A stretch of 53,503 nt of DNA from Chloroflexota bacterium. Lineage in GTDB: Bacteria > Chloroflexota > Limnocylindria > Limnocylindrales > CSP1-4. The position numbers were made by a program, and so were the translations under genes. Below the pieces are notes generated by a model. It saw only the letters and a list, made by a program, of their open reading frames with translations, did no database searches and had not been told where the DNA came from. The stretch covers positions 1 through 53,503 of the forward strand of contig JAICVI010000002.1 of the NCBI GenBank assembly GCA_025935415.1, written 5' to 3'. This document shows, in pieces, positions 9,201-47,023 of this stretch. Position 1 is the first letter of the stretch; each line of letters opens with the position of its first letter.

Positions 9201-9212
9201 GAGGTGGCGACC

Positions 9213-22359: not shown

Positions 22360-22410
22360 ATCGGCATCGTAGCGAAGATGTGTTCCATTCGGAAGCTATC
22401 TCGCCGGACA

Positions 22411-22599: not shown

Positions 22600-22676
22600 T
22601 GGTCGGGGCGGTCGGATTCGAACCGACGACCTCATGCTCCCAAAGCATGTGCGCTACCAGGCTGCGCTACGCCCCG
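22600..22676 (-). tRNA. tRNA-Pro (anticodon TGG), CCA encoded
   Basis: The reverse complement reads CGGGGCGTAGCGCAGCCTGGTAGCGCACATGCTTTGGGAGCATGAGGTCGTCGGTTCGAATCCGACCGCCCCGACCA. The anticodon loop is TTTGGGA. Confidence 0.9.
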
Positions 22677-22844
22677 CGGACCGGTGCCAATTCTAGGTCC
22701 ATCGACCGAGGGCTCCGAACGACGATGGCACCGCCGGTCACACCCGGGCGGTGAGGAGGCTCGTACAGGCAGCCGAGATCGCCGGGAACCGCCCGTCGAG
22801 CACCGGCGTCTTTGGCCCGGCGCCGGGCGGGAGCTGGCAGGCTG

Positions 22845-28392: not shown

Positions 28393-29550
28393 TCACTCGA
28401 GCGCCGGGAGGAGGACCTCGTCCACGAACCGCCGGCTCGACTGGCCGTCGGCGATCTCGAAGGCGTCGTCGCGGAACCGGGCGACGCGATCGAGGTCGAA
28501 GTCGGCGGCGCGGAGCCAGGCGGCGAGCTCCGCGGTCGTGTCGAAGACCGGACCGGGCACGCCCGATCGGTAGTCGAAGTAGAACCCGCGCTCGCCCTCG
28601 TAGTCGGCGAGGTCCGGGGCGAAGAACGCCATCGGACGGCCCAGGAGCGAGTACTCGTAGATCGCGCTGGAGTAGTCGGTCACGAGGACGTCGCTGACGA
28701 GCATCAGGTCGTGGATGTCCGGGTGGTCCGAGACATCGACCACGAAGCCCTCGAGGTCCGGTCCCAGGACGGTCGAGCGGCGGACGAAGGGATGCTGCCG
28801 AAGGAGCAGCACGTGGTCCTGGCCCAGGGCCGCGCGAAGCCCGTGGAGGTCCAGCTCGACCGGCTGCCGCGCCACCAGCGCGCTCTCGCCCCGGAACGTC
28901 GGCGCGTACAGGACCGTCCGCTTCCCGGCGATCGCGGGATAGGCGGCGCGGACCGCGGCTTCGGCGGTGTGGCGGCGCTCGCCGAAGAGCTGGTCGGTCC
29001 GGGGGACGCCGGTGGACGCGTGGAAGCGCTCCAGCGGCTGGTTGAACGCCTCGGCGTACGCCGGGGCGAAGCGCATCGAGGACACGAGGCAGTAGTCGTA
29101 GTTCGTGTGGATCGGGAGCTGCGCGACGTCCGCCTCGGTCTGGCCGAAGCCCTTGTCGAGGACGCTGTAGCCGAACTTCTTGAATGCGCCCGAGGCATGC
29201 CACACCTGGACGAAGGTCGTGCGACTGCGCGGCCGGACCGCATACATCGGCAGGAAGTAGTCGTCGACGACGAAGGCCCGCGCCCCCGCGAGGTGGTAGC
29301 CGGAGCGGATGGAGGCGAGGGCCGCGGTGACGAGGCCACGCAGCGAGGTGCTGGGCTCGAAGGCAATCGTTGCGACCGGGATGCGAGGCGACCGGCCGGC
29401 CAGCTCCGCGCGAACGGCCGCGAGATTGCCCCCGAGGCGCCGGGCGTGGCTGGTCGCGAGCACGACCCGGCGTCGCGGCGGGCCGGCGAGGCGCCCCACG
29501 AGGAACCCGAGACGAACCAGCGCAAGCCTGGCGGCGAGCCGTGGGGACAT
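28393..29550 (-). CDS. TagF/TarL-family CDP-polyol phosphotransferase (teichoic-acid-type polyol-phosphate transferase)
   Basis: The ATG at 29550 lies in track ORF 28393..29793. The sequence reads VQVWHASGAFKKFGYS...GVPRTDQLF...RTVLYAPTFRGE...VLLLRQHPFV...SDVLVTDYSSAIYEYSLLGRPMAFFAPDLADYEGERGFYFDY, which carries the Glyphos_transf motifs. Confidence 0.85.
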   Translation of the reverse strand: MSPRLAARLALVRLGFLVGRLAGPPRRRVVLATSHARRLGGNLAAVRAELAGRSPRIPVATIAFEPSTSLRGLVTAALASIRSGYHLAGARAFVVDDYFLPMYAVRPRSRTTFVQVWHASGAFKKFGYSVLDKGFGQTEADVAQLPIHTNYDYCLVSSMRFAPAYAEAFNQPLERFHASTGVPRTDQLFGERRHTAEAAVRAAYPAIAGKRTVLYAPTFRGESALVARQPVELDLHGLRAALGQDHVLLLRQHPFVRRSTVLGPDLEGFVVDVSDHPDIHDLMLVSDVLVTDYSSAIYEYSLLGRPMAFFAPDLADYEGERGFYFDYRSGVPGPVFDTTAELAAWLRAADFDLDRVARFRDDAFEIADGQSSRRFVDEVLLPALE

Positions 29551-29612
29551 GACGCGACGGGATGATAGCGATCGACCTCGGGGCTTCCGGCGCGTCCTAT
29601 GCTCTCCGGCGC

Positions 29613-31037
29613 ATGCAGATTCACGCCCTCGTGCTGGCCGGCGGATCGGGCGACCGCTTCGCCGCGGAGATGCCCAAGCAGTTCGTCCGGCTCGCCGGCG
29701 AGCCGATCCTGCTCCGGAGCCTGCGAACCGTGGCCGGCGCCGGCATCGATCGGCTCGTCGTCGTCTCGCACCCGTCGTGGATCGCGGAGACACGCGAGAT
29801 CGTGGAGGGAGCGGAGCTCGGGGTGCCGACGGTGGTCGTGGCGGGCGGCGTCACCCGCAACGAGAGCACGCTTCGTGGACTGGCGGCCCTGGAGGCGGAC
29901 CCGGACGACATCGTGCTCGTGCACGACGCGGTGCGGCCCCTGGTCCCGACCGAGGTCATCCAGCGCTCCATCGAGCCGATCCTCTCGGGTCGCGCCGACG
30001 GGACGGACACCGTCATTCCCACGGCCGACACGCTGGTCGTGGTGGAGGGCGACCGGGTCGTGGAGATTCCGCAGCGAGCCCGCTACCGGCGTGGCCAGAC
30101 GCCCCAGACGTTCCGGATGTGGGTTCTGAAGGAGGCCTACGAGAAGGCCGCGGCAGCCGGTGACCTCACCGCGACCGACGACTGCAGCCTGGTCCTCCGC
30201 CACGTGCCCAACGTCCGCCTCGTGGCGGTCGCCGGCGACGAGGTCAACCTCAAGATCACGACGCGCACGGACCTCGTGCTCGCCGACCGGATGATCCAGA
30301 TGCGGACCCTCGAGACCGCGGATCCGGTGCCGACGCGCTCGCTCGAGGAAGCCCGCGTCTACGTCGTCGGAGGAACCGACGGGATCGGGCGGTCGATCGC
30401 GGACGCGGCGGGGGCCGCCGGGGCCCGGGTCGCCGTGGACGGCCGGCGATCCGGCCTCGACGTGCGCGATGCCGCGGGAATCGCGGCCCGCATGGACGCG
30501 GTCGCGGCGGCCTTCGGGGGGATCGATCACGTCATCTGCACGGCCGGGGTCATGCGGGTCGGGCCGTCCGCGGCGGCGAGCGCCGAGGAGCTGGCCGAGG
30601 TCATCGACGTCAACGTCACGGGAACGCTCTCGGTGGCGCGAGCCGCCTATCCCCATCTGCGGGCCTCGCAGGGGTCGTTCACCGTGTTCGCGTCGAGCTC
30701 GTTCAGCCGTGGGCGCGCGAACTACGTGGCCTACTCGGGCAGCAAGGCGGCAGTCGTCAACATCGCCCAGGGGCTCGCGGAGGAGTGGGCGCCCGATCGG
30801 ATCCGGGTGAACGCCGTGAGCCCGGAGCGAACCGACACCCCGATGCGTCGCTCGGCCTTCCCCGAGGAGTCGCGCGCCGGGATGCTGCAACCGGGCGAGG
30901 TCGCCGAGGCAACGCTGCGGCTGATCCGATCCGACCTCACCGGCCAGGTGCTGGACGTGCGGCGCCATGACAGCGCGCCGGTGGATCCGGGCCGGCCGGA
31001 AGCGGGGCGCGCCGAGCCGGCCCCGGAACGGCGGTGA
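29613..31037 (+). CDS. Bifunctional CDP-ribitol synthase-like protein: N-terminal IspD/TarI-type cytidylyltransferase fused to a C-terminal short-chain dehydrogenase (Bcs1/Acs1 architecture)
   Basis: The ATG at 29613 lies in track ORF 29562..31037. The N-terminal part reads ALVLAGGSGDRF....PKQFVRLAGEPIL...VLVHDAVRPLV...RGQTPQTF. The C-terminal part reads VVGGTDGIGRSIA...CTAGV...SSSFSRGRANYVAYSGSKAAV...NAVSPERTDTPM. Confidence 0.85.
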   Translation: MQIHALVLAGGSGDRFAAEMPKQFVRLAGEPILLRSLRTVAGAGIDRLVVVSHPSWIAETREIVEGAELGVPTVVVAGGVTRNESTLRGLAALEADPDDIVLVHDAVRPLVPTEVIQRSIEPILSGRADGTDTVIPTADTLVVVEGDRVVEIPQRARYRRGQTPQTFRMWVLKEAYEKAAAAGDLTATDDCSLVLRHVPNVRLVAVAGDEVNLKITTRTDLVLADRMIQMRTLETADPVPTRSLEEARVYVVGGTDGIGRSIADAAGAAGARVAVDGRRSGLDVRDAAGIAARMDAVAAAFGGIDHVICTAGVMRVGPSAAASAEELAEVIDVNVTGTLSVARAAYPHLRASQGSFTVFASSSFSRGRANYVAYSGSKAAVVNIAQGLAEEWAPDRIRVNAVSPERTDTPMRRSAFPEESRAGMLQPGEVAEATLRLIRSDLTGQVLDVRRHDSAPVDPGRPEAGRAEPAPERR

Positions 31038-32158
31038 CCCGGCTCGATTACCGGATCGCGTCGACGGTCCTGCGGCTGCTCGGCTGGCTGTTCGGGTTCC
31101 TCCCGGCGCGGCGGAACGTGGTGGTCCTGGCGTCGCCGAGGAAGCGGGCGCTCGACGGCAACCTCCTTGCCATACGCGACGAGATCCGGGCCCGCCGTCC
31201 CCGCGCCCGGATCGTGGAGCTGGCGGAGACCTACGGCTACGGCTTCCGCGGGAAGCTGCTCTACGCCCTCCGGATGGTCCGGGCGATGTACCACCTCCGG
31301 ACGGCCGGGCTGGTCGTCCTCGACAATGCCTGGCTGCCGGTCCATGTGGCGCCCCACCCGGCTCGGACCACGGTCGTGCAGGTCTGGCACGCCGTCGGGG
31401 CGCTGAAGCGCTTCGGCGTGGACACGGTCCCGCCGCCCCGCGAGCCCGAGCGCTCCTTCCTGCATCGTCACTACGACTGGGTCGTCGCGAGCGGCGAGGC
31501 CTCTCGCGGTCCCTGGGCGCGGGCGCTGCGAACGAACCCGGACCACGTGCTCGCGCTGGGCTCGCCGCGTACGGACGCGCTCCTCGACCCGGCCGCCCTC
31601 GCGGCCGAACGCGCGCGCATCGTGGCGCGCTACCCCGGGCTCGTGGGCCGCCGCGTGATCACGTACGCGCCCACGTTCCGAGGCCGCGGACGCGGGAAGG
31701 AGCCGGCGCGTGGGCTCGATGCGCCGCGCCTGCGAGCCGCTCTCCCAGCAGGCGACGTGCTCGTGCTCAAGAGCCATCCGAACCTGGACTTCGACCTCGT
31801 GGAGACCTCCGGTTTCGACGTCGTGGTGGACCCAGCGGAGGACATGAACGCCGTGCTCGCAGCGACCGACATCCTCGTGACCGACTACTCGTCCTCGATC
31901 TTCGAGTACGCCCTGCTGCGCCGGCCGCTGGTGTTGCTGGTGCCCGACCTGGAGGCCTACGAGCGCGAGCCGGGGATGTACCTCGACTACCGCCGGGAGA
32001 TGGTCGGCACGCAGGTGCGATCGACCGACGAGGTCGCCGCGGCGATCGCGGCGGACGCGTTCGACCTGTCGCCCTACGAGGCCTTCATCCGCCGCCACCT
32101 CGGCTCGCCGGACGGGCGCTCGAGCCGACGGTTCGTGGATCGATTTCTTCCCGGCTGA
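31034..32158 (+). CDS. Second TagF/TarL-family CDP-polyol phosphotransferase
   Basis: Track ORF of 374 aa with a GTGA start/stop overlap with the preceding gene. The sequence reads VQVWHAVGALKRFG...GSPRTDALL...ITYAPTFRG...VLVLKSHPNL...TDILVTDYSSSIFEYALLRRPLVLLVPDLEAYEREPGMYLDY. Confidence 0.85.
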   Translation: MTRLDYRIASTVLRLLGWLFGFLPARRNVVVLASPRKRALDGNLLAIRDEIRARRPRARIVELAETYGYGFRGKLLYALRMVRAMYHLRTAGLVVLDNAWLPVHVAPHPARTTVVQVWHAVGALKRFGVDTVPPPREPERSFLHRHYDWVVASGEASRGPWARALRTNPDHVLALGSPRTDALLDPAALAAERARIVARYPGLVGRRVITYAPTFRGRGRGKEPARGLDAPRLRAALPAGDVLVLKSHPNLDFDLVETSGFDVVVDPAEDMNAVLAATDILVTDYSSSIFEYALLRRPLVLLVPDLEAYEREPGMYLDYRREMVGTQVRSTDEVAAAIAADAFDLSPYEAFIRRHLGSPDGRSSRRFVDRFLPG

Positions 32159-33797
32159 TCGCCGCCATCACGGGCTCGGTGCCGTTCCCGGCATCGTGCT
32201 CGTCCGGCCCCGGCAGGCTGGCCAGCGTCTCGATCGTCGGCATCGAGCCGGCGAGGATGTCCGGCAAGAGCTCCGACCAGTTGTGCCCGCGGACACGGAT
32301 CCGCACGCGGTTCGCGCGCTGGATCGCCTGCCGGAGCAACGCCCGCTCGCGTGTCAGCAGCTCGTGGTTCGAGAGGCCGCCGATGACCAGCAGCGGCGCG
32401 AACGTCGCAAATGGCGGGAAGGTGTACGCATCCTCGGTGTTCTGGAGGAGCTCGTCGAGGGTGTGCTCCGGCGTCGGCTGCTCGACCAGCGGCTCGCCCC
32501 GTTCCATGAGCACGACGGCCCGAACGCGCGATCGATCGACGACGTCGCAATCGACCAGTGACGTCACGTGGTACTTCGGCGGCGGGATGAACAGCTGGAC
32601 CCAGGCGTTGAGGGTCACGATCGGGATCGGCAGGCGGCCGAGGGCATGCCCGACGGCGCGGCCCTCGCGGGAGTGCAGCTTCGAGCGCACCGCGAGCATC
32701 ATCCGATCGGCCCAGGGGAGAGCCTTGTCGCTGACCGCGTTCATCGTGTGCGACGACAGGGTCATGGGCTTGGGGTAGCCGAGGATCTCGCCGCCGGCGC
32801 CGAGGATCGCCATGTCGTCCGACAGGAATCCATAGTCGTGGTTCACGAGCAGCCGGAGCACGGTGCTGGTCTTGCCCGTGTCCGTCTTCGCCGACATGAC
32901 GAGGGCGCCGGCGTCGCCGTCGATGGCCGCGCAGTGGAGCAGCACGTAGCCACGAGCGACGAGCACGAACCGCAGCAGTGGCTCGACCATGTTCGTGTAG
33001 AGGACGTGGTGTGACCACAGCAGCAGCCAGTTGGCATCGAGCGTGATCGGCTCGCGGGACTCCGGCGGCTGCAGCCCGATGTCGAAGGCCGCGCTGAGCG
33101 CGCCCAGCTGCTCGCGGTACCGGATCGTCCGGCCGTCCCGCCACGTGGCGATCCGCAGCCTGGGCCAGCCCCCGAGCCAGCGCCGTCGGACGACGAGATC
33201 GGGCTCGTCCACCTCGCGGTCGACGTTGAATGCCGCGAGCTCCGGGAGGGCGACGGCCGAGCGGATCCGCAGCAGGCCGTGGATGTCGTACTGGAAGGCC
33301 CCGGCCACGGGCCGTTGCGCGCGCTGGTCACGTCCTGCCCAGATCCAGTTGTCGGCGATGAGGTAGCGGATGCCGAACGTCAGCCCGATCGCCACCAGGT
33401 TGGAGATCGTGTAGTGGAGCCCGGCGTGGTCGGTCAGGAAGTAGAGCACCGGGATGCGGATGAGCAGCGTCGCCATGTTGACGGCGTTGAAGATCAGGTA
33501 GCGGATGAGCACCTGGCCGCGGGCTTCCCGGGCTCGGAAGACCCAGAACTCGGTCAGCAGGAAGTTGCTGAGCGTGGAGACCTGCGAGGACAGGATCGAG
33601 GACACGATGTAGTAGACGCCGAGGACCTCGGTGAACAGGACCAGGGCGAGCTGGTTGACGACGATTCCGAGGATGCCGACGATCGCGAACTTCGAGGGCG
33701 ACGCCAGGACCCGCAGGGCTCGCCGGGCGATCCCGTGGCGGTGGCGCGGCTCGGCAGGCTGGTTCGGCTCGGCAGGAAGCTGCCGTTCCTCGGTCAT
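32085..33797 (-). CDS. Fusion protein: N-terminal GtrA-like 4-TM domain plus C-terminal HPr-kinase-like (HprK-related) P-loop domain
   Basis: Track ORF of 570 aa. Residues ~30-150 (FAIVGILGIVVNQLALVLFTEVLGVYYIVSSILSSQVSTLSNFLLTEFWVFR...ISNLVAIGLTFGIRYLIADNWIW) look like GtrA. Residues ~280-330 (GYVLLHCAAIDGDAGALVMSAKTDTGKTSTVLRLLVNHDYGFLSDDMAIL) match the LHA..v...G..ll.G.sG.GKST..l.L...G....sDD pattern of HprK C-terminal-like proteins. The last 74 nt overlap the convergent TagF-like gene. Confidence 0.7.
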   Translation of the reverse strand: MTEERQLPAEPNQPAEPRHRHGIARRALRVLASPSKFAIVGILGIVVNQLALVLFTEVLGVYYIVSSILSSQVSTLSNFLLTEFWVFRAREARGQVLIRYLIFNAVNMATLLIRIPVLYFLTDHAGLHYTISNLVAIGLTFGIRYLIADNWIWAGRDQRAQRPVAGAFQYDIHGLLRIRSAVALPELAAFNVDREVDEPDLVVRRRWLGGWPRLRIATWRDGRTIRYREQLGALSAAFDIGLQPPESREPITLDANWLLLWSHHVLYTNMVEPLLRFVLVARGYVLLHCAAIDGDAGALVMSAKTDTGKTSTVLRLLVNHDYGFLSDDMAILGAGGEILGYPKPMTLSSHTMNAVSDKALPWADRMMLAVRSKLHSREGRAVGHALGRLPIPIVTLNAWVQLFIPPPKYHVTSLVDCDVVDRSRVRAVVLMERGEPLVEQPTPEHTLDELLQNTEDAYTFPPFATFAPLLVIGGLSNHELLTRERALLRQAIQRANRVRIRVRGHNWSELLPDILAGSMPTIETLASLPGPDEHDAGNGTEPVMAAISREEIDPRTVGSSARPASRGGGG

Positions 33798-33829
33798 GGA
33801 CGGGTGGATTGTAGGTACCTCGCGGATGG

Positions 33830-35986
33830 CTACGGAGCCGCGACCGACCGCAACCGTGCGAGGGCCGCGTCCGCGGCGTCGCCAGGGGGCACCACGATCA
33901 ATCGGTCGAGGAATGCGGTTGCGGCATCCCGGGAGCCATCCTCCGCCAGCATCCGGGCGAGAACGTCGACCGCCTCCGGCTGGGCGTACGTGACGTCCGG
34001 CCTGAACTCGAGCCCGGCGAGATCGAGCCAGAACGCCGACACCACGAGCTCTCCTGCCTTGAGCGGATAGGACCAGCGCATCGCGAGCCGTGCCCCTGCG
34101 GCGTTCTTCAGGGCCTCGGTCAAGGGCGTGGACTCGACGTCCGGCGCCAGGTACCCGGCCTCGATCCAGAGGACCGCACCGGCAACCCTGAGCTGCTTCA
34201 GCAGATGCTCGCTCGAATAGGTGTCCAGGCTGTCGACCTTGCGCAGCGCGGTCTCGAGCGTGAGCGGCGCGACGCCCGCGCTCTTCGACAGCCGGAGGCC
34301 CGTCGGGGTCGAAGGGTCGGCGATGGCTCGTTCTGGCAGGGCCCGCACCACCCTGAGGCTGCCGTGGACCTCCAGCGCCAGCTCATAGGCGAGCGCCGGC
34401 CCGATCGACACCGTCTGGCCCGGCGGGACGGTCGCGCGAAGCCAGGCACCGATCTCCGCGAGCGCGCGGTTGCGGTTCGCAATGCTGGCCTCGCCAGCTG
34501 ATCCCCTCGCCGCGGTCGCCGTTGCGATTGCCGCGGATGAAAGGAAGACCGCGGTCAGGACGAGCGTTCCCGCGAGACGTGGCCGGACGGCCGTGAGGCG
34601 GCGTTCGAAGCGCAGCCAGGTCCACCGCAGCAGGCCGAAGGCGATGAGCAGCGCGACGCCAGCGGCGAGCGCACGCGGCGCGTTCAGGGACACGTGCCTG
34701 GAGTGGAGCAGCTGTGCGCCGCCGGCGAGGACCACGATCCCGACGGCGCCCAGGAGGAGCCACCGGTCCGAGCCGGCGAACGCGCGTCTCGCCACTGCGA
34801 CGAAGCCGACGCCACCCAGCGCGGCGCCGAGGCACAAGGTCGCCAGGTAGTGGCGGGGTGTCTCGCCGATGCCCAGCACGAGGACGATGAGGGCGACCTG
34901 CGCGACGCCGGCGAACAGGAGCTGCCAGACCGGCTGGGAGCGCGCCGCGCGAAGGGCCAGGAGCGCCCCGACCACGCCGATCGCCACGATCATGCCGATC
35001 TGCGGCAGATACCTGCTCACATCCGCGACCAGCTGCGAGAGGCGGACGATGGAGGCGCCGCTGAGCTTCGGGGCGACGGCGTAGATCGCCAGCTGCCCCA
35101 GGAGCCAGACGCCCAGGCCGCCCCACGCGACCACGGCGCGGAGGACCCGACTCCTGCGACCGCTGAGCCGGGCGTCGAGTGCCTGGCCGAGTGCGCTCCT
35201 GGAGAGTCGAGGCAGCGCAAGGCCGACGATGACCACGACGACGACGGCCAGGCCGATCGGGACCAGGAGCCACGCAGGCCCACCGACGCGGTAGACCTGG
35301 CCTGTGAGCTGCGCGTAGAGGACGAACCACCACGCGCTGGTCACCGCGGCCGCGAGGAGCGCGGCGGCGGAGACGCGTCCGATCGTCCGCGCCGGAACCA
35401 TCCCGAGCAGCGCGGCGAGGAAGGGGACCGGGGCGAACGGGATGACGGTCTCCTTGATGAGGAAGCCCGCGCCGAAGAGCAGGCCCGCCAGGAGGCCGAG
35501 TCGAGCGGACCCCCGTTCGATCGCGACGACGGCGACCCACAGGTACGCGAGCACGAACGCCGTCGCCGGGAGATCGATCCCTGCACTCCGGGCCAGGTTC
35601 GCGAGGTACGGCGTCGCGAGAAGCGCGGCGGCCGTGACCCCGCCGGCGGCGGGACGGTACCGCCAGGCCAGCGCGGCCGCGAAGAGCATCGAGAGCGCGG
35701 CCGCGATCGCCTCGATCACGTGGCCCAGCGCGAACGGATCGAGCCCGAGCCAGGCTTTCGGGACGGCGAGCACCAGCGGCCAGACGGGCGCGTGATACAG
35801 GATCGGTGCGCCGAAGTCGGTGACGAGGCCCTTGCCGTCGAGGATGTTGAGCCCGAGGCCGACGTATTTGGCGTCATCCGGGGTCTGGAACGCCGGCCCC
35901 TGGATCGCGAAGAGGGCAAGGAACAGGGCCACGGAGGCACCGACGATGGCGAGGGCGATGCGCCGCTCGTCGAGGCGATCCGTCAC
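33830..35986 (-). CDS. GT-C-fold polyprenyl-phosphate-sugar-dependent glycosyltransferase (PMT_2/ArnT/YfhO-like) with a C-terminal extracytoplasmic domain
   Basis: Track ORF of 718 aa with a GTG start and about 12-14 TM segments. An acidic first-loop motif (QTPDDAKYVGLGLNILDGKG) is followed by a ~230-aa soluble C-terminal region. Confidence 0.7.
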   Translation of the reverse strand: MTDRLDERRIALAIVGASVALFLALFAIQGPAFQTPDDAKYVGLGLNILDGKGLVTDFGAPILYHAPVWPLVLAVPKAWLGLDPFALGHVIEAIAAALSMLFAAALAWRYRPAAGGVTAAALLATPYLANLARSAGIDLPATAFVLAYLWVAVVAIERGSARLGLLAGLLFGAGFLIKETVIPFAPVPFLAALLGMVPARTIGRVSAAALLAAAVTSAWWFVLYAQLTGQVYRVGGPAWLLVPIGLAVVVVVIVGLALPRLSRSALGQALDARLSGRRSRVLRAVVAWGGLGVWLLGQLAIYAVAPKLSGASIVRLSQLVADVSRYLPQIGMIVAIGVVGALLALRAARSQPVWQLLFAGVAQVALIVLVLGIGETPRHYLATLCLGAALGGVGFVAVARRAFAGSDRWLLLGAVGIVVLAGGAQLLHSRHVSLNAPRALAAGVALLIAFGLLRWTWLRFERRLTAVRPRLAGTLVLTAVFLSSAAIATATAARGSAGEASIANRNRALAEIGAWLRATVPPGQTVSIGPALAYELALEVHGSLRVVRALPERAIADPSTPTGLRLSKSAGVAPLTLETALRKVDSLDTYSSEHLLKQLRVAGAVLWIEAGYLAPDVESTPLTEALKNAAGARLAMRWSYPLKAGELVVSAFWLDLAGLEFRPDVTYAQPEAVDVLARMLAEDGSRDAATAFLDRLIVVPPGDAADAALARLRSVAAP

Positions 35987-36054
35987 GGTCGGCCATGTTA
36001 GGGGATGCTCGATATGCTCCGGTGCCTAACCGGCTCGCGGAACGAGGAGAAGGC

Positions 36055-37449: not shown

Positions 37450-37460
37450 TCGCCGGAGTC

Positions 37461-37480
37461 GCGCCGGCCTGATCCGGCGC
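37461..37480. terminator. GC-rich hairpin between the convergent dehydrogenase and FkbH-like genes (no U-tract)
   Basis: gcgccgg-cctgat-ccggcgc forms a 7-bp stem with a 6-nt loop, 12 nt after the stop at 37449. Confidence 0.3.
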
Positions 37481-37519
37481 ACATCGTTCCAGCGTCAGCG
37501 GCGCCGCACGAGCCCGCCC

Positions 37520-39439: not shown

Positions 39440-39470
39440 CGTACCATTACCCCTCCCACGCTCGCCGGAG

Positions 39471-42400
39471 GTGCCGCCGATCGCCAGGACAGGTCCGAAG
39501 CCGCGGCTCCCCTGGAAGCGCAGGCGACCGGCGCGGCACTCGCGCAGGCCGACCGTCGCGTTCCTGTCGTATTCGACCGGGGAGTTCGACGCGCGGACGT
39601 TCCGGATGGCGGAGTCGGCGCTCGATGCCGGCTACCGCGTCCGCGTGTACAGCCGCTGGCACCCCGGCCAGCTGCCCCGCGAGGATCGTGGCGACTACGA
39701 GCTGATCCGCGTGCCCTTCGACTGGCAGCTCGCCGTCCCCTTCCTCCGGGACGGCGCCCGCAAGCGTGCGGCCGCGGCCATGGCGGCCGCGCCCACGGAG
39801 GCCGCGATTGCCGCGGCGGCCGCCGCCGAGGAAGCCGCCAGGGAAGCCGCTGCCGCGGAGGCCGAAGGCACCGCGGGTGCGATGTCCCCGGACGTGCCGG
39901 CGTTCTCGTCCTCCACGGACCTCGGCGTCTCGGAGGCGACTTATGCCGCCGCCATCGAGCGGGCGAGGGCCCGGTCCGCGCACGGCAGGAAGGGGAAGGG
40001 CCGCCGCGCTCGACTCCAGCGCCGCGTCCGACGGGTAGCCGGGGCCGGTTTGACCCTCGCGGGCAAGGTGGCCCGAACCCTGCGGCGGCCGCAGCGTATC
40101 CCGGGCCTCCTCGTGAGCCTCCCGCGCCGTGCCGTCGGGCGGGTCCGCCGGCGCGTGGGTCGCCTGTGGCGCCAGCTCGTGATGTTCCCCCTCGGCCCGC
40201 GCGCCTGGGCCGTGGCGCTGGAGTCGGTGGCGGAGCCGGCCGACATCTGGCACGGCATGTGGGCAGGCTCGCTCCCGGCGCTCGTCCGGCTCCGCCGTCT
40301 CCACGGCGGTCGCTCGATCTACGACAGTCGCGACATCTTCATGGAGTCCCGCGACTGGGCCCGCCTGCGTCGCCCGATCCGCTCCGTCCTCCAGCGGCTG
40401 GAGCGGCGCTGGGCCCAGCGCGTCGACCTGGTGCTGACCGTCAACGAGTCCTACGCCAGAATCCTCGAGCGCTTGCTGGAGGTGCCGCGACCGCCGGTCG
40501 TGATGAACTGCCAGCCCCGGTGGACGCCTCCGGATCCACCCCCGGATCTGATCCGCGAGGCCCTCGGCATTCCCCCCGAGGTCGCGATCGCCCTGTACCA
40601 GGGCCGGCTCCAGTCGGATCGCGGCATCGAGCAGTCGATGGAGGCCATCCTCGAGGTCCCCAACACGGTGCTGGTCCTGCTCGGCTTCGGCGGGTGGGAG
40701 AAGCGTCTTCGCGAGGAGATCGCAGCACCACCCTACGAAGGGCGCGTCTTCCTGCTCCCCGCGGTGCCGCCGGATCAGCTGGTCGCTTGGACCGCATCCG
40801 CGGACGTGTCGGTGATGGCGATCCAGCCGAGCAGCCTCAACCACCGCTGGACGACGCCGCAGAAGCTGTTCGAGAGCCTGGCCGCCGGCACCCCGGTGGT
40901 CGCCTCGGACCTGCCCGGCATGGCGGAGATCGTCCGGCCCGCGCGGGCAGGCTCGCTGGCCGATCCCACGGATCCTCACGACATCGCGCGCAAGATCCGG
41001 GACATCATCGAAGGCTCGCCAGAGGAACGGCGGGCCCTTCGAGCCCGCGTCACGGCAGCGGCGAGGGAGCGCTTCACGTGGGAGGCGCAGGCCGTGACGC
41101 TCCTGCAGCTGTACCGCGAGCTGCTCGGCGAGGATCGCGCTGCGCAGCTTCGACCGCGCCTCCGACAGGTGTCAGGCCCGACCCTGCACCTCGTCACGGT
41201 CGTGGGCGAGGCCCAGGCGGGCGACGTCCAGCTGGTCCTCGACCCCGGATGGGTGCCACCCGTCGGTGAGCCCGGCGTGCTCGCAGATCGCGGCCTCCTG
41301 AGCGCCCTGTCAATCGGCGAGGAGGTCCTCCGTACGCGCGACATCGCCCGGGAGGCGATGGACCTCCTCGACCAGTGGTCCGAGCGTGCCGACATCCCGG
41401 CTCGGACCACGCTCCACGGCACCTCCTTCTGGTACGGGCTGCGCCTGCAGTTCTGGGCCTGGGTGCTCCACACGAGCCTCTGGCTGGCGGTCCTCCGGCG
41501 CGTCCTCGACGAGCATCCCGAGATCGAGCGGTTGAGCTGCCCCGCGGATTCCGAGGAGCAGCTCATCCAGGCCTGCGAGCTCATTGCCGATGCCCGCGGG
41601 CTCGTCTTCGACCCGGGGCCCCCGGCAAGCCCGCGGAAGCCCGCAGCGGAGTCGAAGGCCCCGGCGGCCGACGCCTTCCAGGCGCCCACGGACATGCTCG
41701 GACGCCTCCGCTGGCGGCTCCGACCACCGGCCCTCGCCCGCAGGCAGCGAACGATGCTGGACCGGCTGCTCCATCTCGAGCGGGTCGGGCATCGGAGGCT
41801 CCTCGTGGTCGGCGCGCATGTTCCCCAGCTCATCAACGGCCCGGGCGGGCCGCGGCTGATGAACGCCTACCTCGGCCCGATCGTCGATCGACTCGCCGGG
41901 GGCCGGCTTGATCCGATCGAGCTCGACCTCCGGGCGGATCTCGCCAACGACGCCCACTGGCAGCGGCTCAACGGACCACGTGCCAGCCGCACCCTCTCGG
42001 GCTCCGTGCTGACGCTCGCCGAGATCGGCTACGCCGCGAGCTCCGCGCGGGCGCTGGCCAATCGCCTGGCCGCGGAGATCGCCGAAGACCGCACCGCGCT
42101 GCTCGTCGACGGCGTCGATCTCGGCCCATCGCTCCGACGCGTGGTCGCACAGCGCGTCGGGAGCGGCCTGCCGCGCCGGGTTCGCGACGTTGCTCAGATC
42201 CGCGCCCTCCTGCGCCGGCTCAAGCCCGCGGGCATCCTGCTCGCCGACGAGTACCACCGCCAGGATTGGCTGGCGGCGGCGGCGCTCGAGTCCGTGCCCG
42301 TGGCGGCGGTGCAGCACGGTGTCATTCACGAAACCCACGTCGGCTACATCCATCGAACCCGGACGCCCGAGCTGCGCCTTCCGGACCGGACGTACGTCTT

Positions 42401-43124
42401 CGGCGCGTGGGAGCGATCGCTGCTGCTCCGCCAGAGCGTGTACCGCGCCGACGAGGTCGTCGTCGGTGGCTCCCCCCGGCTCGACCTCGTGCATACCGGC
42501 GCCGGCGACCCAGCGGCGGTCCGTCGACGGCTCGGTCTCGACGAGGGCCGGCGCCTCGTGGTCCTGTCGGCATCCTGGGGCCCGCTCCAGCGTCGCTTCT
42601 ACTACCCGATTGCCCTCCGAAGCCTCTTCGACCGCGAGATCGACGGCATCCACCTCGTCGTCAAGCTCCATCCGACCGAGACGGACGAGGGCCCGTACCG
42701 CAGCGTGATCGAGGCCGTCGCCGAGCGTGGTGGCTTCCGGGCGCCACCGATCACGGTCGTCCAGGACATCGACCTCTACGAGCTGCTCGAGGCGGCTGAT
42801 GCCCACCTCGGCGTCCGGTCGACCGTTCTCACCGAGGCCGTGGTGGCAGGCACGCCCAACATCATCGCGGCGGGGCTCGCCGGCTACGACCAGCTCGACT
42901 ACGTGAGCTCCGGCGTGGCGATCCCGGTCGAGAACGGGGCGGAGCTCCAGGCGGCGGTCGCTGCCGGCCCACCGCCCCTCCCGGAGGACGTGCGGGCGGC
43001 CTTCGTCGCGGCCCACTTCGATCCTGCCGGTGGCGCGCAGCGGATCGCGGATGACCTCGAGGCATGGCTCGCCGGGGCGGCGGCGGCGGTCGGCGTCGGG
43101 ATGGACGCGGGTCCGCAAGCCTGA
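39471..43124 (+). CDS. Two-module glycosyltransferase of about 1200 aa: N-terminal GT4 (GT-B) module with a ~140-aa Ala/Arg-rich insert, plus a C-terminal GT-B-like module resembling capsule-synthesis (KpsC/KpsS-type) enzymes
   Basis: Frame of track ORF 39366..43124. GTG at 39471 is the first start that does not overlap the divergent gene, but the start remains uncertain. GT4 motifs are ADIWHGMWAGSLPALV..GGRSIYDSRDIF, VLTVNESYA, ALYQGRL...GIE and PQKLFESLAAGTPVVASDLPGMAEIV. The C-terminal module reads RLLVVGAH..., AAVQHGVI, VLSASWGP, IHLVVKLHPTE and HLGVRSTVLTEAVVAGTPNIIAAGLAGY. Confidence 0.65.
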   Translation: MPPIARTGPKPRLPWKRRRPARHSRRPTVAFLSYSTGEFDARTFRMAESALDAGYRVRVYSRWHPGQLPREDRGDYELIRVPFDWQLAVPFLRDGARKRAAAAMAAAPTEAAIAAAAAAEEAAREAAAAEAEGTAGAMSPDVPAFSSSTDLGVSEATYAAAIERARARSAHGRKGKGRRARLQRRVRRVAGAGLTLAGKVARTLRRPQRIPGLLVSLPRRAVGRVRRRVGRLWRQLVMFPLGPRAWAVALESVAEPADIWHGMWAGSLPALVRLRRLHGGRSIYDSRDIFMESRDWARLRRPIRSVLQRLERRWAQRVDLVLTVNESYARILERLLEVPRPPVVMNCQPRWTPPDPPPDLIREALGIPPEVAIALYQGRLQSDRGIEQSMEAILEVPNTVLVLLGFGGWEKRLREEIAAPPYEGRVFLLPAVPPDQLVAWTASADVSVMAIQPSSLNHRWTTPQKLFESLAAGTPVVASDLPGMAEIVRPARAGSLADPTDPHDIARKIRDIIEGSPEERRALRARVTAAARERFTWEAQAVTLLQLYRELLGEDRAAQLRPRLRQVSGPTLHLVTVVGEAQAGDVQLVLDPGWVPPVGEPGVLADRGLLSALSIGEEVLRTRDIAREAMDLLDQWSERADIPARTTLHGTSFWYGLRLQFWAWVLHTSLWLAVLRRVLDEHPEIERLSCPADSEEQLIQACELIADARGLVFDPGPPASPRKPAAESKAPAADAFQAPTDMLGRLRWRLRPPALARRQRTMLDRLLHLERVGHRRLLVVGAHVPQLINGPGGPRLMNAYLGPIVDRLAGGRLDPIELDLRADLANDAHWQRLNGPRASRTLSGSVLTLAEIGYAASSARALANRLAAEIAEDRTALLVDGVDLGPSLRRVVAQRVGSGLPRRVRDVAQIRALLRRLKPAGILLADEYHRQDWLAAAALESVPVAAVQHGVIHETHVGYIHRTRTPELRLPDRTYVFGAWERSLLLRQSVYRADEVVVGGSPRLDLVHTGAGDPAAVRRRLGLDEGRRLVVLSASWGPLQRRFYYPIALRSLFDREIDGIHLVVKLHPTETDEGPYRSVIEAVAERGGFRAPPITVVQDIDLYELLEAADAHLGVRSTVLTEAVVAGTPNIIAAGLAGYDQLDYVSSGVAIPVENGAELQAAVAAGPPPLPEDVRAAFVAAHFDPAGGAQRIADDLEAWLAGAAAAVGVGMDAGPQA

Positions 43125-43127
43125 CGG

Positions 43128-44393
43128 TCAGGCCGCTCCCGGGCCGACGAACCTCCGACGCGGTCGACGGCGGCGCCGCAGCAACGTCTGCGGGAACCGC
43201 AGCGTGAGCAGCAGCGAAGCGATGACCGTGGCCGGGACGCCGGCGACCCGCCCGCCGCCGGGCCGCGCGAGGATCGCGGTCGCGGCCCGCACCAGGCTCG
43301 GGGTTCGCAGCCACGCCGGGATCGAGGGATGCTCGCGGACAAGGCGCGCCAGGAAAGCCAGGTACGCCGAGCGGACGGATGCCGGCGCGCCGACCCAGTA
43401 GTCGAGCGGGTCCAGGACGAGCCCCTCGGTGACCGCCGGCGAGCGCTCGACCAGCCCTTCCGGCGCGGAGGCGATGAATGCCCCGACCGCATCGAACAGG
43501 TCCTCGGCCCCCTCGTCGGCGCGGGCCAGCGCCCGCGCCATCGGGCCCTCGAGGTCCGAGCGAACGAGCCGCTCGAAGTACGCCCCCACGACACGCTCGC
43601 GATCCCCGGGATCGGCGAGCTGCGCCTGCGCCTCGGCCGCCACGTCGGCGAGGGCGCCGATCGCGACACGCGCCGCTTCTGCGGCGACCCGTGCCGAGCC
43701 GCGCTTGGCCGCGGTGATCGTGCCGTCGCTCTCCACCATCGGACGGCGCCACTCGTAGACATCCTCGGCGATCACCTCGATGGCGTCGCCGGCTCGAAGG
43801 AGCGCACGGACCGTCCACGGTTGGTCGCCCAGCACACGGCCGCTGAAGCGCAGGCCCTGGAACGTCGACGCGTGAAAGAGCTTGCCGGTGGCCGATGCGT
43901 AGAAGAGCAGCCCGGGGCGGCCGGCGAGCGACGTTCGGCCAGGCCGGCGAATGTCGGGAATGTCGTAGGCCGGCGTCCGCCAGCGCCGCCGGCCGTCCGA
44001 CCACACGCGTTGGCCGACGACCACCCGAACGTCGGGCTGCCTGCTCGCCTCGCTGAGGGCCCGGAGACCGCCCGGCAGCAGGACGTCGTCGGCGTCGAGG
44101 TAGGTCAGCCACTCGCCGCGGATCGCGTCGAGCCCCAGGTTGCGCGCGCTCGACACACCGGCGTTGGCCTCGGACCGCACGAGGACGATGCGCGGATCGC
44201 TCGCGGCCCGGGCCACGACCGTCGCCGCGGTGTCGTCGGTCGAGCCATCGTCGACCACGACGCACTCGACGTCCGCGACGCCCTCATCGAGGACGGAATC
44301 GAGCGCTCGCCCGATCGACCGACCCGCGTTCCATGCCGGAATCAGGACCGAGACGGCCGGCCGAGCGGAGGGGGTTGCGATGCTACCCTTCAG
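43128..44393 (-). CDS. GT2-family (GT-A fold) glycosyltransferase; no canonical start codon upstream of its conserved N-terminus (candidate CTG at 44393)
   Basis: Track ORF 43128..44258 begins at VVDDGSTDDT. The frame stays open to an in-frame TGA at 44417..44415 and encodes the expected PAVSVLIPAWNAGRSIGRALDSVLDEGVADVECVVVDDGS. That stretch has only CTG, ATC or ATT as possible starts. The CTG at 44393 lies 7 nt after GGAG. A DxD motif (YLDADD) is present. Confidence 0.65.
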   Translation of the reverse strand: MKGSIATPSARPAVSVLIPAWNAGRSIGRALDSVLDEGVADVECVVVDDGSTDDTAATVVARAASDPRIVLVRSEANAGVSSARNLGLDAIRGEWLTYLDADDVLLPGGLRALSEASRQPDVRVVVGQRVWSDGRRRWRTPAYDIPDIRRPGRTSLAGRPGLLFYASATGKLFHASTFQGLRFSGRVLGDQPWTVRALLRAGDAIEVIAEDVYEWRRPMVESDGTITAAKRGSARVAAEAARVAIGALADVAAEAQAQLADPGDRERVVGAYFERLVRSDLEGPMARALARADEGAEDLFDAVGAFIASAPEGLVERSPAVTEGLVLDPLDYWVGAPASVRSAYLAFLARLVREHPSIPAWLRTPSLVRAATAILARPGGGRVAGVPATVIASLLLTLRFPQTLLRRRRRPRRRFVGPGAA

Positions 44394-45285
44394 CGCGATG
44401 CTCCATTCTGAGGCTCAGGCGCCTCGGCGCGTCGTGCCCGCTGGGAGCAGCTCCCTCTCGCTCCTCCGACAGGCGATCACCGACGTGGTGTCGCGCCGCC
44501 GGCTGATCCGCTATCTCGTCCAGGCGGACATGAAGAAGCGTGGGTCCGATACGTTCCTCGGGAACCTCTGGTGGATCCTCGACCCGCTCCTCCAGATGCT
44601 GGTCTACGTGATCTTCATCTACGCCATCGGGCGCAAGACCAGCAACGATTACCCGCTCTTCATCTTCGCGGCGTTGCTGCCGTGGAAGTGGTTCATCGCC
44701 GCTATCAACGACGCGACCACCTCCGTGATCCGCCAGGGGAACCTCATCAAGGGCATCGCGTTCCCGAAGCTCGTCCTGCCAGTCGCCACCGCGACCGCGG
44801 GAACCGTTGGATTCCTGTGGGGCATGGTGCCGCTGGGCGGCCTGATGCTGATCTACCACGACCGCATCTCGCTGATGCTCCTGTGGATCCCCGTCATCGC
44901 CGGCGTGCAGTACGTGTTCACGCTCGCGGGCGCGGTCTTCGTCTCGGCAGCGAACGTGTTCTTCCGCGATCTCGGCAATGCCATCACCCACCTCCTGCGG
45001 CTGTGGTGGTTCCTCTCGCCGGGGCTGTTCAGCCTCGCGGCGCTCTCCGAGATCGACTTCGTCAAGCACCACCCGATCATCCTCACGATCGCCAGCCTCA
45101 ACCCGTTCGCCACCCTCTTCGCCGCCTACCGCAACGTCATCTACGGCACGCCCGACGGCGTCGGGAAGCCGCTCCCGCCGGACCTCACGGCGCTCGCGGG
45201 ATTGCTGCTCGGGAGCCTCGTGTTCCTGGCCCTCACCGTGATCTTCTTCAAGCGCGTCGAGCCGAACTTCGCGAAGGTCCTGTGA
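44380..45285 (+). CDS. tagG: ABC-2-type polysaccharide/teichoic-acid export permease (TagG/Wzm/KpsM-like)
   Basis: The ATG at 44380 lies 5 nt after GGAGGGG, in the frame of track ORF 44140..45285. The sequence reads RRRLIRYLVQADMKKRGSDTFLGNLWWILDPLLQMLVYVIF and has about 6 TM segments. Confidence 0.8.
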   Translation: MLPFSAMLHSEAQAPRRVVPAGSSSLSLLRQAITDVVSRRRLIRYLVQADMKKRGSDTFLGNLWWILDPLLQMLVYVIFIYAIGRKTSNDYPLFIFAALLPWKWFIAAINDATTSVIRQGNLIKGIAFPKLVLPVATATAGTVGFLWGMVPLGGLMLIYHDRISLMLLWIPVIAGVQYVFTLAGAVFVSAANVFFRDLGNAITHLLRLWWFLSPGLFSLAALSEIDFVKHHPIILTIASLNPFATLFAAYRNVIYGTPDGVGKPLPPDLTALAGLLLGSLVFLALTVIFFKRVEPNFAKVL

Positions 45286-46166
45286 CCACGGACGTTGGCC
45301 AGTCGCCGGCAGCCACCTCGGCGACGCGCGATTCGTCGACCGTCTCGCAGACGATTCCCGTGTCCGCGAGGGACGACTACGCGATCGCGATCGATGACCT
45401 CGGCGTCCGCTACAACCTGCGGTTCAACCGCAAGACCACGGTGCGGCAGTCGTTCGCGAACGTCGTGCTGCGCCGCCCGCCGGAACAGTTCTGGGCACTG
45501 CGAAACGTCTCGCTGCGGCTTGCCCATGGCGAATCGCTCGCGGTCATCGGCCCGAACGGTGCCGGCAAGAGCACGTTCCTCCAGGTCCTCGCCGGGATCA
45601 TGCGTCCGTCGGAGGGCTTCGTCGACGTTCGCGGCCAGGTCTCGGGACTCCTCGGGCTCGGCCTCGGGTTCGACGCCGACCTGTCCGGCGTGGAGAACAT
45701 CCTCCTCGGCGGGGCCTTCCTGGGGTTCGACGACGCCAGGGTCCGCGAGCTCGTGCCGCAGATCGTCGAGTTCGCCGACCTCGGACAGTTCATCGACGCC
45801 CCGATCAAGACCTACTCGTCGGGCATGCGGGCGCGGCTCGGCTTCTCGATCGCGACGGCCGTCGACCCGGACATCCTCCTGCTCGACGAGGTCCTCGCCG
45901 CCGGGGACGCGAACTTCCGCACGAAGTCGAAGGCCCGGGTCATCGAGCTCGTCAGCGGCGCGAAGGCGGTCGTCCTCGTGACCCACGACATGGAATGGGT
46001 CCGGGAGTACTGCAATCGCGCGATCCTCCTCGAGAAGGGCCGCGTCATCCTCGAGGGCCGCCCGGACGAGGTCACGGAGCTGCACCTGCAGCGCCAGGCC
46101 GAGGAAGCCGAGCGCCGCCGCGCGAGAGCGGCGCAGAAAGGTCTCGACCCGCTCGTCGCGAAGTAG
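45282..46166 (+). CDS. tagH: Polysaccharide/teichoic-acid export ABC ATP-binding protein (TagH/Wzt/KpsT-like)
   Basis: The GTG at 45282 overlaps the permease stop (GTGA), in the frame of track ORF 44571..46166. The sequence reads FWALRNVSLRLAHGESLAVIGPNGAGKSTFL, YSSGMRARLGFS and ILLLDEVLAAGD. Confidence 0.85.
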   Translation: MTTDVGQSPAATSATRDSSTVSQTIPVSARDDYAIAIDDLGVRYNLRFNRKTTVRQSFANVVLRRPPEQFWALRNVSLRLAHGESLAVIGPNGAGKSTFLQVLAGIMRPSEGFVDVRGQVSGLLGLGLGFDADLSGVENILLGGAFLGFDDARVRELVPQIVEFADLGQFIDAPIKTYSSGMRARLGFSIATAVDPDILLLDEVLAAGDANFRTKSKARVIELVSGAKAVVLVTHDMEWVREYCNRAILLEKGRVILEGRPDEVTELHLQRQAEEAERRRARAAQKGLDPLVAK

Positions 46167-46889: not shown

Positions 46890-47023
46890 CGCCGGTCCTC
46901 CTCGTGGCGTTCGGATGGCCAGCGTAGCGCGAGGGACCGGCGTCAACGACCGGACGGCGCCGGCAGCCGGGACGCGAGTATCCTGCGCGGGCCGGTGCTC
47001 GGGGCGCCGGCCGGGAGGGCAAC

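Follow-up and report, generated by a model that had tools for sequence, protein, structure and literature searches.

A predicted ribitol-phosphate polymer locus of wall-teichoic-acid type with an inserted, lineage-specific decoration block in Limnocylindria (Chloroflexota)

A predicted ribitol-phosphate polymer pathway

We analyzed a stretch of 53.5 kb (contig JAICVI010000002.1, assembly GCA_025935415.1, positions 1 to 53,503), referred to as the window, from the metagenome-assembled genome (MAG) of an uncultured bacterium of the class Limnocylindria, phylum Chloroflexota. It contains a locus that probably directs the synthesis of a ribitol-phosphate polymer by a pathway resembling that of wall teichoic acids, with export by an ABC transporter, and that includes an inserted decoration block specific to the lineage. 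A first-pass annotation made from the sequence had described positions 28393-46166 as a single 18-kb island for synthesis and export of such a polymer. The product remains the best reading and follows from a Bcs1-type fusion protein, two TarL-like TagF enzymes and a TagGH-type exporter. The unity of the island held up in part: there is a conserved core, while the remainder is a composite, lineage-specific insertion of 12.3 kb with parts that are found elsewhere on their own. The core consists of the following genes and is conserved throughout the class.

28393..29550, minus strand, tagF1, putative TarL/TarK-like ribitol-phosphate transferase of 385 aa (Glyphos_transf, E 2.6e-77)
29613..31037, plus strand, predicted Bcs1-type bifunctional CDP-ribitol synthase, N-terminal cytidylyltransferase (IspD, E 8e-45) and C-terminal short-chain dehydrogenase/reductase (SDR; adh_short, E 1e-31)
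31034..32158, plus strand, tagF2, second putative TarL-like polyol-phosphate transferase (Glyphos_transf, E 5e-63)
44380..45285, plus strand, TagG/Wzm-like ABC-2 permease (weak Wzm match, E 1.2e-6; transmembrane segments)
45282..46166, plus strand, TagH/Wzt-type ABC ATPase (ABC_tran, E 8e-18; galactan Wzt model, 192 bits; TagH models, 185 and 174 bits)

In the pathway that we propose on the basis of sequence, the fused enzyme would reduce ribulose-5-phosphate and then activate it to CDP-ribitol, the two TarL/TarK-like TagF enzymes, working at the inner side of the membrane, would use a lipid-linked acceptor to prime and polymerize ribitol phosphate, and the TagG/TagH-type transporter would export the chain. 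TagO/TagA-type enzymes with genes at other sites of the genome would provide the lipid-linked primer. Finally, an LCP ligase, the gene for which would be displaced in this contig, would attach the polymer to peptidoglycan. Chloroflexota are monoderm but stain Gram-negative.

Since most of the listed open reading frames (ORFs) are spurious at a G+C content of about 71%, genes were called by third-position GC, and families were assigned with Pfam and NCBIfam. All genes listed in the first-pass annotation were recovered in this way, at the same coordinates or within a few codons of them. The closest homologues of three island proteins stem from MAGs assigned to Candidatus Limnocylindrales, Candidatus Limnocylindria and Chloroflexota, and an actinobacterial origin, to which the high G+C content might point, was rejected on this ground.

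Assignment of the fused enzyme as a CDP-ribitol synthase

The fused protein, which begins with an ATG read directly in the sequence at position 29613, combines a cytidylyltransferase with an SDR in the order typical of Bcs1/Acs1-type synthases, and on this basis a role in CDP-ribitol formation had been suggested before. Our results agree with this suggestion. The top three matches in the PDB are TarI-type ribitol-5-phosphate cytidylyltransferases of Firmicutes origin (4jis, 2vsh and 3f1c, 110-117 bits), with IspD from Mycobacterium smegmatis (2xwl) just below at 107.7 bits. A fused protein from Escherichia coli, found in 132 E. coli genomes, is co-linear with the window protein over the full length (38% identity, E 1e-106). 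Its gene belongs to region 2 of a capsule locus of group 2 and is bordered by the gene for a 1107-aa TagF-like protein on one side and kpsS/C/U/D/E/F on the other. Homologues, which share at least 71% identity among the 120 clusters listed, carry the JGI annotation ribitol-5-phosphate dehydrogenase/cytidylyltransferase, and both the cytidylyltransferase motifs and the SDR motifs GxGxxG (here GGTxGIG) and YxxxK are invariant in the family. Bcs1 itself is an experimentally demonstrated CDP-ribitol synthase (PMC10299916). Given the PDB ranking, the capsule fusion in E. coli, the JGI names, the motifs and the function of Bcs1, the fusion groups with ribitol-5-phosphate cytidylyltransferases, which rank first, rather than with isoprenoid IspD enzymes, and sequence comparison assigns it as a Bcs1-type CDP-ribitol synthase.

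A chance fusion of an isoprenoid IspD to an unrelated SDR, flanked by TagF enzymes using CDP-glycerol, is hardly credible: TIGR00453 (ispD) is indeed the highest-scoring NCBIfam model (167.9 bits, below its cutoff of 181.3 bits) and the score of 2xwl comes near those of the TarI-type enzymes, but the latter rank first despite their origin in a distant phylum, the co-linearity with Bcs1-like proteins from capsule loci extends over the full length, TarL-like enzymes lie on both sides of the fusion in 12 of 13 loci, and a gene for a glycerol-3-phosphate cytidylyltransferase was not found in the locus. An identity as isoprenoid IspD was thus rejected. An exact-sequence database look-up with the window synthase (start at 29613) returned no match.

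Full-length Bcs1-type fusions with 33-41% identity are also present in many MAGs of Chlamydiota, in a MAG of a Methanomassiliicoccaceae archaeon, in Vulcanimicrobiota, in a Puniceicoccales MAG and in Heyndrickxia camelliae (loci L016-L034). To judge from these sequences, CDP-ribitol appears to be used far more widely than the classic examples would imply.

Putative ribitol-phosphate transferases and exporter

TagF1 lacks the N-terminal domain of TarL and finds its best PDB match in Staphylococcus aureus TarL (8va1, 178 bits), compared with 114 bits for TagF (3l7i). The same preference is seen for TagF2 (114 bits for 8va1 versus 56 bits for TagF). All TagF-family matches in the window are best against TarL, with TarB as a weaker secondary match, and the two catalytic histidine motifs (QVWHA and RQHP in TagF1) are retained in both enzymes. 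The capsule polymerase Cps3D (8qoy) is among the PDB matches of both, and both miss the NCBIfam equivalog cutoff for TarL (1000 bits) with 211 and 121 bits. The best reading of these comparisons is that TagF1 and TagF2 are ribitol-phosphate transferases. The start of tagF2 overlaps the stop of the synthase gene. At its other end, tagF2 is convergent with the gene for the GtrA fusion protein described below, and the 3' ends overlap by about 71-74 bp (window 32085-32158). This overlap is kept in three genomes: the window, L001 (17149-17222) and L002 (17215-17285).

Assignment of the transporter genes to a TagG/TagH-type exporter by the first-pass annotation proved sound. The ATPase reaches 174-192 bits with TagH and Wzt models, values that fall under the equivalog cutoffs, and is devoid of a C-terminal carbohydrate-binding extension. 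The permease matches Wzm weakly and is translationally coupled to the ATPase, its stop codon and the ATPase start codon overlapping in GTGA. Permease identity is 96% in L001 and L002 and 57-62% in L009, L010, L013, L020 and L023.

Three genes further downstream are the usual partners of the core, so that the functional locus reaches position 49005.

46170 to about 46889-47039, minus strand, conserved Ala/Pro-rich protein with a C-terminal transmembrane anchor, without Pfam or NCBIfam family
47024..48244, plus strand, DUF3048 membrane-anchored protein (DUF3048, E 5e-39; DUF3048_C, E 3e-20)
48241..49005, minus strand, DPMS/GtrB-like family 2 glycosyltransferase (GT2), predicted catalytic half of a polyprenyl-phosphate hexose synthase (Pyrococcus furiosus DPMS 5mlz, E 7e-31)

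DUF3048 proteins are encoded in most related loci. Homologues of the Ala/Pro-rich protein, which shows a faint bactofilin-like signal (E 0.18), are encoded between the exporter and DUF3048 in L001, L002, L007, L008, L010, L020 and L023, and directly after DUF3048 in L013. The DPMS-like GT2 is found with 68-89% identity in L001-L003, L007, L008, L010 and L023.

Conservation of the locus among Chloroflexota

Species-representative genomes were scanned with the fusion, which yielded 80 loci, and a presence/absence matrix was built. The fusion is carried by 13 Chloroflexota loci, 12 of which have the triad of tagF1, synthase gene and tagF2; the exception, L020, has a single TagF-like gene, placed downstream. 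The entire gene order, from the gene for a GH18 protein to that for a SurA-like protein, is kept in L001 (a 1.05-Mb JGI contig) and L002 (GCA_036265515.1). In L010 and L023 the permease gene directly follows tagF2, and in L013 it is close by. The exporter, the Ala/Pro-rich membrane protein and DUF3048 are kept in L007, L008 and L020, with the ATPase alone detected in L007; the DPMS-like GT2 gene lies downstream in L007 and L008, not in L020. A match of the gene order to a chemically defined teichoic acid locus of a model organism had been named as an outcome that would refute the first-pass proposal, and no cultured model with this gene order was found. A horizontally acquired island was also considered and rejected, as the G+C content is uniform (0.68-0.74) and the core is kept at one site throughout the class.

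L007 contains further genes of interest (5182-13996). A second, unfused pair of IspD-like and SDR genes follows the fused synthase gene, and there are three Glyphos_transf genes, one of which gene calling merged with the SurA-like gene. These extra genes could mean that a second CDP-alditol is involved.

In more distant Limnocylindria, the chromosomal site is occupied by different glycan genes. L004 is flanked by Ham1, RNase PH, MazG and SurA-like genes and L003 by genes for DUF3048 and the DPMS-like GT2, i.e., by the flanks of the window locus. Their glycan genes include those for NeuB, a CMP-sugar synthase and either Wzx/Wzy or another ABC transporter, and ribitol genes were found in neither locus within the stretch read. 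Accordingly, the genes for surface glycans vary at this site, which, as far as gene content tells, resembles a serotype locus.

Genes for initiation and ligation

The first-pass annotation had stated that genes for TagO/WecA, TagA, TagB/TagD and LCP proteins are missing from the window, and this was borne out. Genes for TagO/WecA, TagA and LCP were found neither by Pfam searches of the other ORFs nor by tblastn with E. coli WecA and WecG and the LCP protein of a relative, and the Pfam and NCBIfam scans of the window named neither a stand-alone TagD (glycerol-3-phosphate cytidylyltransferase) nor a glycerol-phosphate primase. In five relatives (L007, L008, L010, L013 and L020), an LCP gene resides upstream of the locus in the order LCP, LOG, Ham1, RNase PH, MazG, SurA, tagF1, and L020 contains a WecG/TagA homologue within the locus. 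These findings favor a peptidoglycan-linked polymer. In the window, the position of the LCP gene is taken by a gene for tRNA-Pro(tgg) and an unrelated 376-aa ORF (22600-23942), the product of which has weak matches to beta-propeller glycosidases.

The inserted block

The genes between tagF2 and the permease gene form a block of 12.3 kb (32085-44411).

32085..33797, minus strand, GtrA (four transmembrane segments) fused to an additional domain, termed domain X (GtrA, E 1.3e-21; HprK_rel_A, E 1.3e-6)
33830..35986, minus strand, membrane glycosyltransferase of GT-C fold, partner of the GtrA-X protein (PMT_2, E 9.4e-11; at least 10 hydrophobic segments)
35995..37449, plus strand, predicted UDP-N-acetylhexosamine 6-dehydrogenase of WecC/TviB type (TIGR03026, 398 bits)
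37520..39439, minus strand, FkbH-like three-domain protein with HAD-IIIC domain, middle domain with Cys motif and SGNH-like domain (TIGR01686)
39366..43124, plus strand, two-module enzyme of 1252 aa with GT4 module (aa ~259-587; Glycos_transf_1, E 1e-23) and TagF-like module (aa ~600-1252)
43128..44411, minus strand, GT2 glycosyltransferase (Glycos_transf_2, E 5.7e-21)

The block occurs at this place only in the window, L001 and L002, with 68-96% protein identity; in L009, the GT2 gene alone is located between tagF2 and the permease gene. The top equivalog models of the dehydrogenase are those for UDP-ManNAc dehydrogenases (259 and 232 bits), TviB and UDP-glucose dehydrogenase scoring lower, and the protein is 32% identical to E. 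coli WecC (E 5e-50). In L003 and L004, its gene adjoins a UDP-GlcNAc 2-epimerase gene. From these relationships, the product is probably UDP-ManNAcA or UDP-GlcNAcA, and any uronic acid would be an N-acetylhexosaminuronic acid. A uronic acid had been predicted as a constituent of the ribitol-phosphate polymer. The dehydrogenase as such is real and of the N-acetylhexosamine type, but the uronic-acid genes may serve a second polymer, since components of the block are also encoded separately at other loci.

The second module of the large glycosyltransferase (GT) had been regarded as one without a role in the textbook pathway. We cannot follow this view. A stand-alone homologue encoded in L004 (46% identity) has a weak Glyphos_transf match, and comparison of the module with a TagF1/2 profile by hhalign gave a probability of 87.7% (E 3.4e-6), pairing GSPRLD with GxPRTD and KLHP with the catalytic RxHP. 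It is thus best described, at the level of profile comparison, as a divergent TagF-like module and not as an orphan. A Capsule_synth (KpsC/S) identity was rejected, as the match reached E 0.017 and profile comparison favors a TagF-like module. TagF-like capsule polymerases likewise combine a GT with a TagF-like module (PMC10299916).

For the GT2 enzyme, no ATG, GTG or TTG was found upstream of the catalytic domain, which begins before the first such codon. The start of the orthologue in L002 (4935-6194) is annotated at ATC by NCBI, and the 5' DNA is near-identical in three genomes (window 44258-44414, L002, and L001 ~5100-5240). The 5' end abuts or overlaps the start of the divergent permease gene.

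The FkbH-like protein scores 144.2 bits with TIGR01686 (cutoff 146.65). Invariant in its family are D34 and D36 of the DxDxT motif, S278-C279-R280, and G353 and C355 of a GGCD motif. In Foldseek searches with the AlphaFold2 model (predicted local distance difference test, pLDDT, 87.7), the N-terminal domain matched HAD phosphatases (BF1531, MDP-1) and the C-terminal domain GDSL/SGNH esterases (8ik1, 7e16). A gene for an acyl carrier protein (ACP) partner was not identified among the locus genes by Pfam scans, and literature searches on FkbH in glycan loci gave nothing useful. The protein is probably an acyl decorator, and by analogy with FkbH the acyl group may possibly be derived from glycerate.

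Within the proposed pathway, the dehydrogenase would supply hexosaminuronic acid, the GT4+TagF-like enzyme and the GT2 would add glycosyl or glycosyl-phosphate units to the repeat unit, the linkage unit or a second chain, and the FkbH-like HAD/Cys/SGNH enzyme would add an acyl group, possibly a glycerate-derived one.

A GtrA-fused kinase-like domain in a predicted three-component glycosylation system

The remaining two proteins of the block can be assigned, together with the DPMS-like GT2 (48241-49005), to a three-component transmembrane glycosylation system. The GT2 matches the NCBIfam models for AglJ, PpgS and dolichyl-phosphate hexose transferase, while the GtrA part shares 37% identity with the transmembrane domain of P. 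furiosus DPMS in a structure search. A PDB sequence search with the GT-C protein found no match. In P0241, P0254 and P0286, GT-C is fused to GtrA-X. Genes for all three proteins are co-located with the ribitol locus in the window, L001 and L002. Systems of this kind decorate lipoteichoic and wall teichoic acids in Firmicutes (PMC5836110, PMC7389260, PMC8035078). The first-pass annotation had placed both the GtrA fusion, which it called HprK-like, and the GT-C protein outside the textbook pathway. This was only partly correct: GtrA and GT-C fit a known type of system, and what is new is domain X.

Domain X comprises about 370 residues after GtrA. It has no match in the Pfam copy used and no PDB sequence match. 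The AlphaFold2 model (pLDDT 82.3) resembles ATP-dependent phosphoenolpyruvate carboxykinase (PEPCK, 1ayl) in Foldseek searches (E 6e-6 over ~405-430 columns, with a modest TM-score of ~0.35 for the whole chain) and HPr kinase/phosphorylase (HprK/P) more weakly (E 1e-2). Invariant residues are a Walker A motif (A303-T310, AxxxxGKT), D327-D328 17 residues on, and the upstream H288, an arrangement that we take to be common to PEPCK and HprK/P. The predicted structure thus places domain X in a PEPCK/HprK-like P-loop fold. True HprK identity was rejected: domain X scores 27.8 bits with HprK_rel_A (cutoff 200) and its relatives 23.5 bits with Hpr_kinase_C (threshold 33.3), a PDB sequence match is lacking, and the fold is nearer to PEPCK. 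From the topology of GtrA and DPMS, domain X should be cytoplasmic. The C-terminal tail of GtrA-X is predicted to be disordered (pLDDT <50 after residue 536).

An exhaustive search collected 888 representatives of domain X relatives, of which 136 reached E <= 1e-30. Some of the larger proteins are GT2-GtrA-X, GtrA-X-PMT_2 and GT2-GtrA-X-PMT_2 fusions, and all sources found by cluster look-ups of the fusions are metagenomic. In the library searched, no paper tying GtrA to an HPr-kinase-like domain was found. We consider GtrA-fused domain X a new, undescribed kinase-like domain, and from its modeled fold and its fusion partners we infer an ATP-dependent phosphotransferase-like module that works with the lipid-linked sugar machinery. 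Many GtrA-X homologues (P0134, P0148 and others) carry a precomputed match to Pfam PF27840, and a recent Pfam entry may thus already cover domain X.

In the proposed pathway, the DPMS-like GT2 and GtrA-X would make and present a polyprenyl-phosphate hexose, GT-C would transfer the hexose outside the membrane to the exported polymer or to proteins, and domain X would use ATP to act on the lipid carrier or on the sugar linked to it, either of which it might recharge or phosphorylate.

Weighing the alternatives

Two further explanations deserve discussion. First, the product could be a ribitol-phosphate heteropolymer of capsule type, anchored to lipid or loosely attached, with the GT4+TagF-like enzyme as the polymerase, as in Gram-negative group-2 capsules. 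We regard this as unlikely. It would account for the fused synthase, the form present in H. influenzae type b and E. coli group-2 capsule loci (PMC10299916), for the multi-domain GT+TagF-like build typical of capsule polymerases, for the match of TagF1 and TagF2 to Cps3D, and for the fact that TagO, TagA and LCP were not found in the window. However, Pfam scans of the window revealed neither KpsC/KpsS, apart from the Capsule_synth match noted above, nor KpsD/KpsE. In addition, the host belongs to a monoderm phylum, five relatives carry an LCP gene next to the locus, one of them with a TagA homologue inside it, and the conserved part of the locus comprises stand-alone TarL-like enzymes and not the large GT.

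Second, the site could harbor genes for two or three independent products, i.e., the core for plain poly(ribitol phosphate) and the block for a separate teichuronic-acid-like or glycosyl-phosphate polymer, with GT-C, GtrA-X and GT2 serving unrelated protein O-glycosylation. This would be in line with the distribution of the block genes in relatives. FkbH, dehydrogenase and TagF-like module recur in L004 with nonulosonic-acid genes and an ABC transporter of their own, FkbH and dehydrogenase recur in L003 with Wzx/Wzy genes, both without ribitol genes in the stretch read, and in two other Limnocylindria loci (L005 and L006) the GT-C/GtrA-X pair resides among genes for RNase Y, MiaA, MiaB and HflX. 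Furthermore, PMT_2 is a family of protein O-mannosyltransferases. On the other hand, the window locus has a single exporter, the block sits exactly between tagF2 and the permease gene and is kept there in three genomes, and L009 with its GT2 gene represents an intermediate. We assign a low probability to such separate products.

Several points also weigh against a wall-teichoic-acid-like pathway itself. No teichoic acid of a Chloroflexota bacterium is known to have been demonstrated by chemistry, and literature searches on this subject yielded gene-level mentions only. All NCBIfam equivalog cutoffs (TarL, TagH, ribitol-5-phosphate cytidylyltransferase) were missed, so that substrate specificity rests on the ranking of best matches and on context. 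The genes for TagO, TagA, TagD/TagB and LCP are not in the window. Since relatives carry the FkbH, dehydrogenase and TagF-like modules without ribitol genes, these modules may serve to build another polymer, and in view of the housekeeping context in L005 and L006 the target of GT-C/GtrA-X may not be the ribitol polymer. With these points taken into account, a wall-teichoic-acid-like pathway with an inserted decoration block is still the explanation that we consider probable. The wider proposal, that Limnocylindria produce a wall-linked poly(ribitol-phosphate) teichoic acid and, in addition, use domain X as an ATP-dependent fourth component of polyprenyl-phosphate-sugar/GT-C systems, is put forward tentatively.

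Comparison with characterized systems and significance

The type of pathway is known; new are the host phylum, the composite organization and domain X. With the poly(ribitol phosphate) wall teichoic acid systems of S. aureus and Bacillus subtilis W23 (TarI/TarJ, TarK/TarL, TarG/TarH), the locus shares CDP-ribitol synthesis, two TarL-like transferases and a TagGH-type exporter, as well as, in relatives of the window, an adjoining LCP gene and, in one locus, a TagA homologue. It differs by a synthase that is a single fusion with an SDR instead of TarI plus a separate TarJ of the medium-chain dehydrogenase/reductase type, by TagF enzymes without the TarL N-terminal domain, by its occurrence in Chloroflexota and by the extra 12.3-kb decoration block; TarO, TarA, TarB, TarD and TarF were not found in the window. 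Common to the locus and region 2 of the group-2 capsule loci of H. influenzae type b and E. coli (K18-type; Bcs1 plus Bcs3/CroT) are the Bcs1-type fusion with its 38% identity to the E. coli protein, TagF-like transferases, a multi-domain GT+TagF-like enzyme and ABC-dependent export. In contrast to these loci, KpsC/S, KpsD/E and KpsF/U were not found in the window, a phosphoribosyl-pyrophosphate-dependent ribosyltransferase and phosphatase domains were not detected in the window locus, the host is monoderm, and the conserved core has stand-alone TarL-like enzymes.

Characterized three-component systems (GtrB/CsbB, GtrA/GtcA and a GT-C protein such as YfhO or GtrC) likewise consist of a GT2, a GtrA-family protein with four transmembrane segments and a GT-C enzyme, and the GT2 and the GtrA part of the window match the catalytic and transmembrane halves of P. 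furiosus DPMS. In the window, however, GtrA carries the ~370-aa PEPCK/HprK-like P-loop domain, which distinguishes it from the characterized systems, GT-C belongs to the PMT_2 family and not to YfhO, and the GT2 gene lies 12 kb from the GT-C gene. Domain X shares the predicted fold, the Walker A motif, the Asp-Asp pair and the upstream His with the ATP-dependent PEPCK and HprK/P superfamily, but it lacks sequence-level membership and is membrane-tethered through GtrA. The FkbH-like protein has the HAD-IIIC DxDxT motif and the conserved Cys in the middle domain in common with the FkbH/OzmB glyceryl-transferase-phosphatases of polyketide synthesis; it differs in its extra C-terminal SGNH-like domain, in GGCD replacing GDS, in that no ACP partner was identified, and in the occurrence of proteins of its type in glycan loci of many phyla.

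The wall polymers of Chloroflexota are essentially uncharacterized, and bacteria of the Limnocylindria type are abundant in soil and freshwater. A class-wide ribitol-phosphate locus with an adjacent LCP gene predicts teichoic-acid-type polymers in these bacteria. If this is true, wall teichoic acids extend beyond Bacillota and Actinomycetota. Variation of the site between lineages, with genes for ribitol phosphate, nonulosonic acids or Wzy-type glycans, bears on phage-host interactions. The fusion of a PEPCK/HprK-like domain to GtrA, GT2 and GT-C points to an unstudied step in glycosylation with lipid-linked sugars and, if true, the domain X family would be widespread in uncultured bacteria as part of glycosylation systems.

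Flanking genes

The left flank of the locus is made up of housekeeping genes, namely those for Ham1, MazG and a SurA-like peptidyl-prolyl isomerase, and the right flank comprises the genes for DUF3048, the small DPMS-like GT2 and a large GH18 protein.

49059-52667, minus strand, secreted GH18 protein of 1202 aa with SH3, fn3 and CBM6 domains

The gene for the GH18 protein, possibly an enzyme that hydrolyzes the wall or binds a polymer, borders the locus in the window, L001, L002, L007 and L008. Farther upstream in the window, two ABC ATPase genes and a gene for a MarR-family regulator (19004-22395, minus strand) appear unrelated to the locus.

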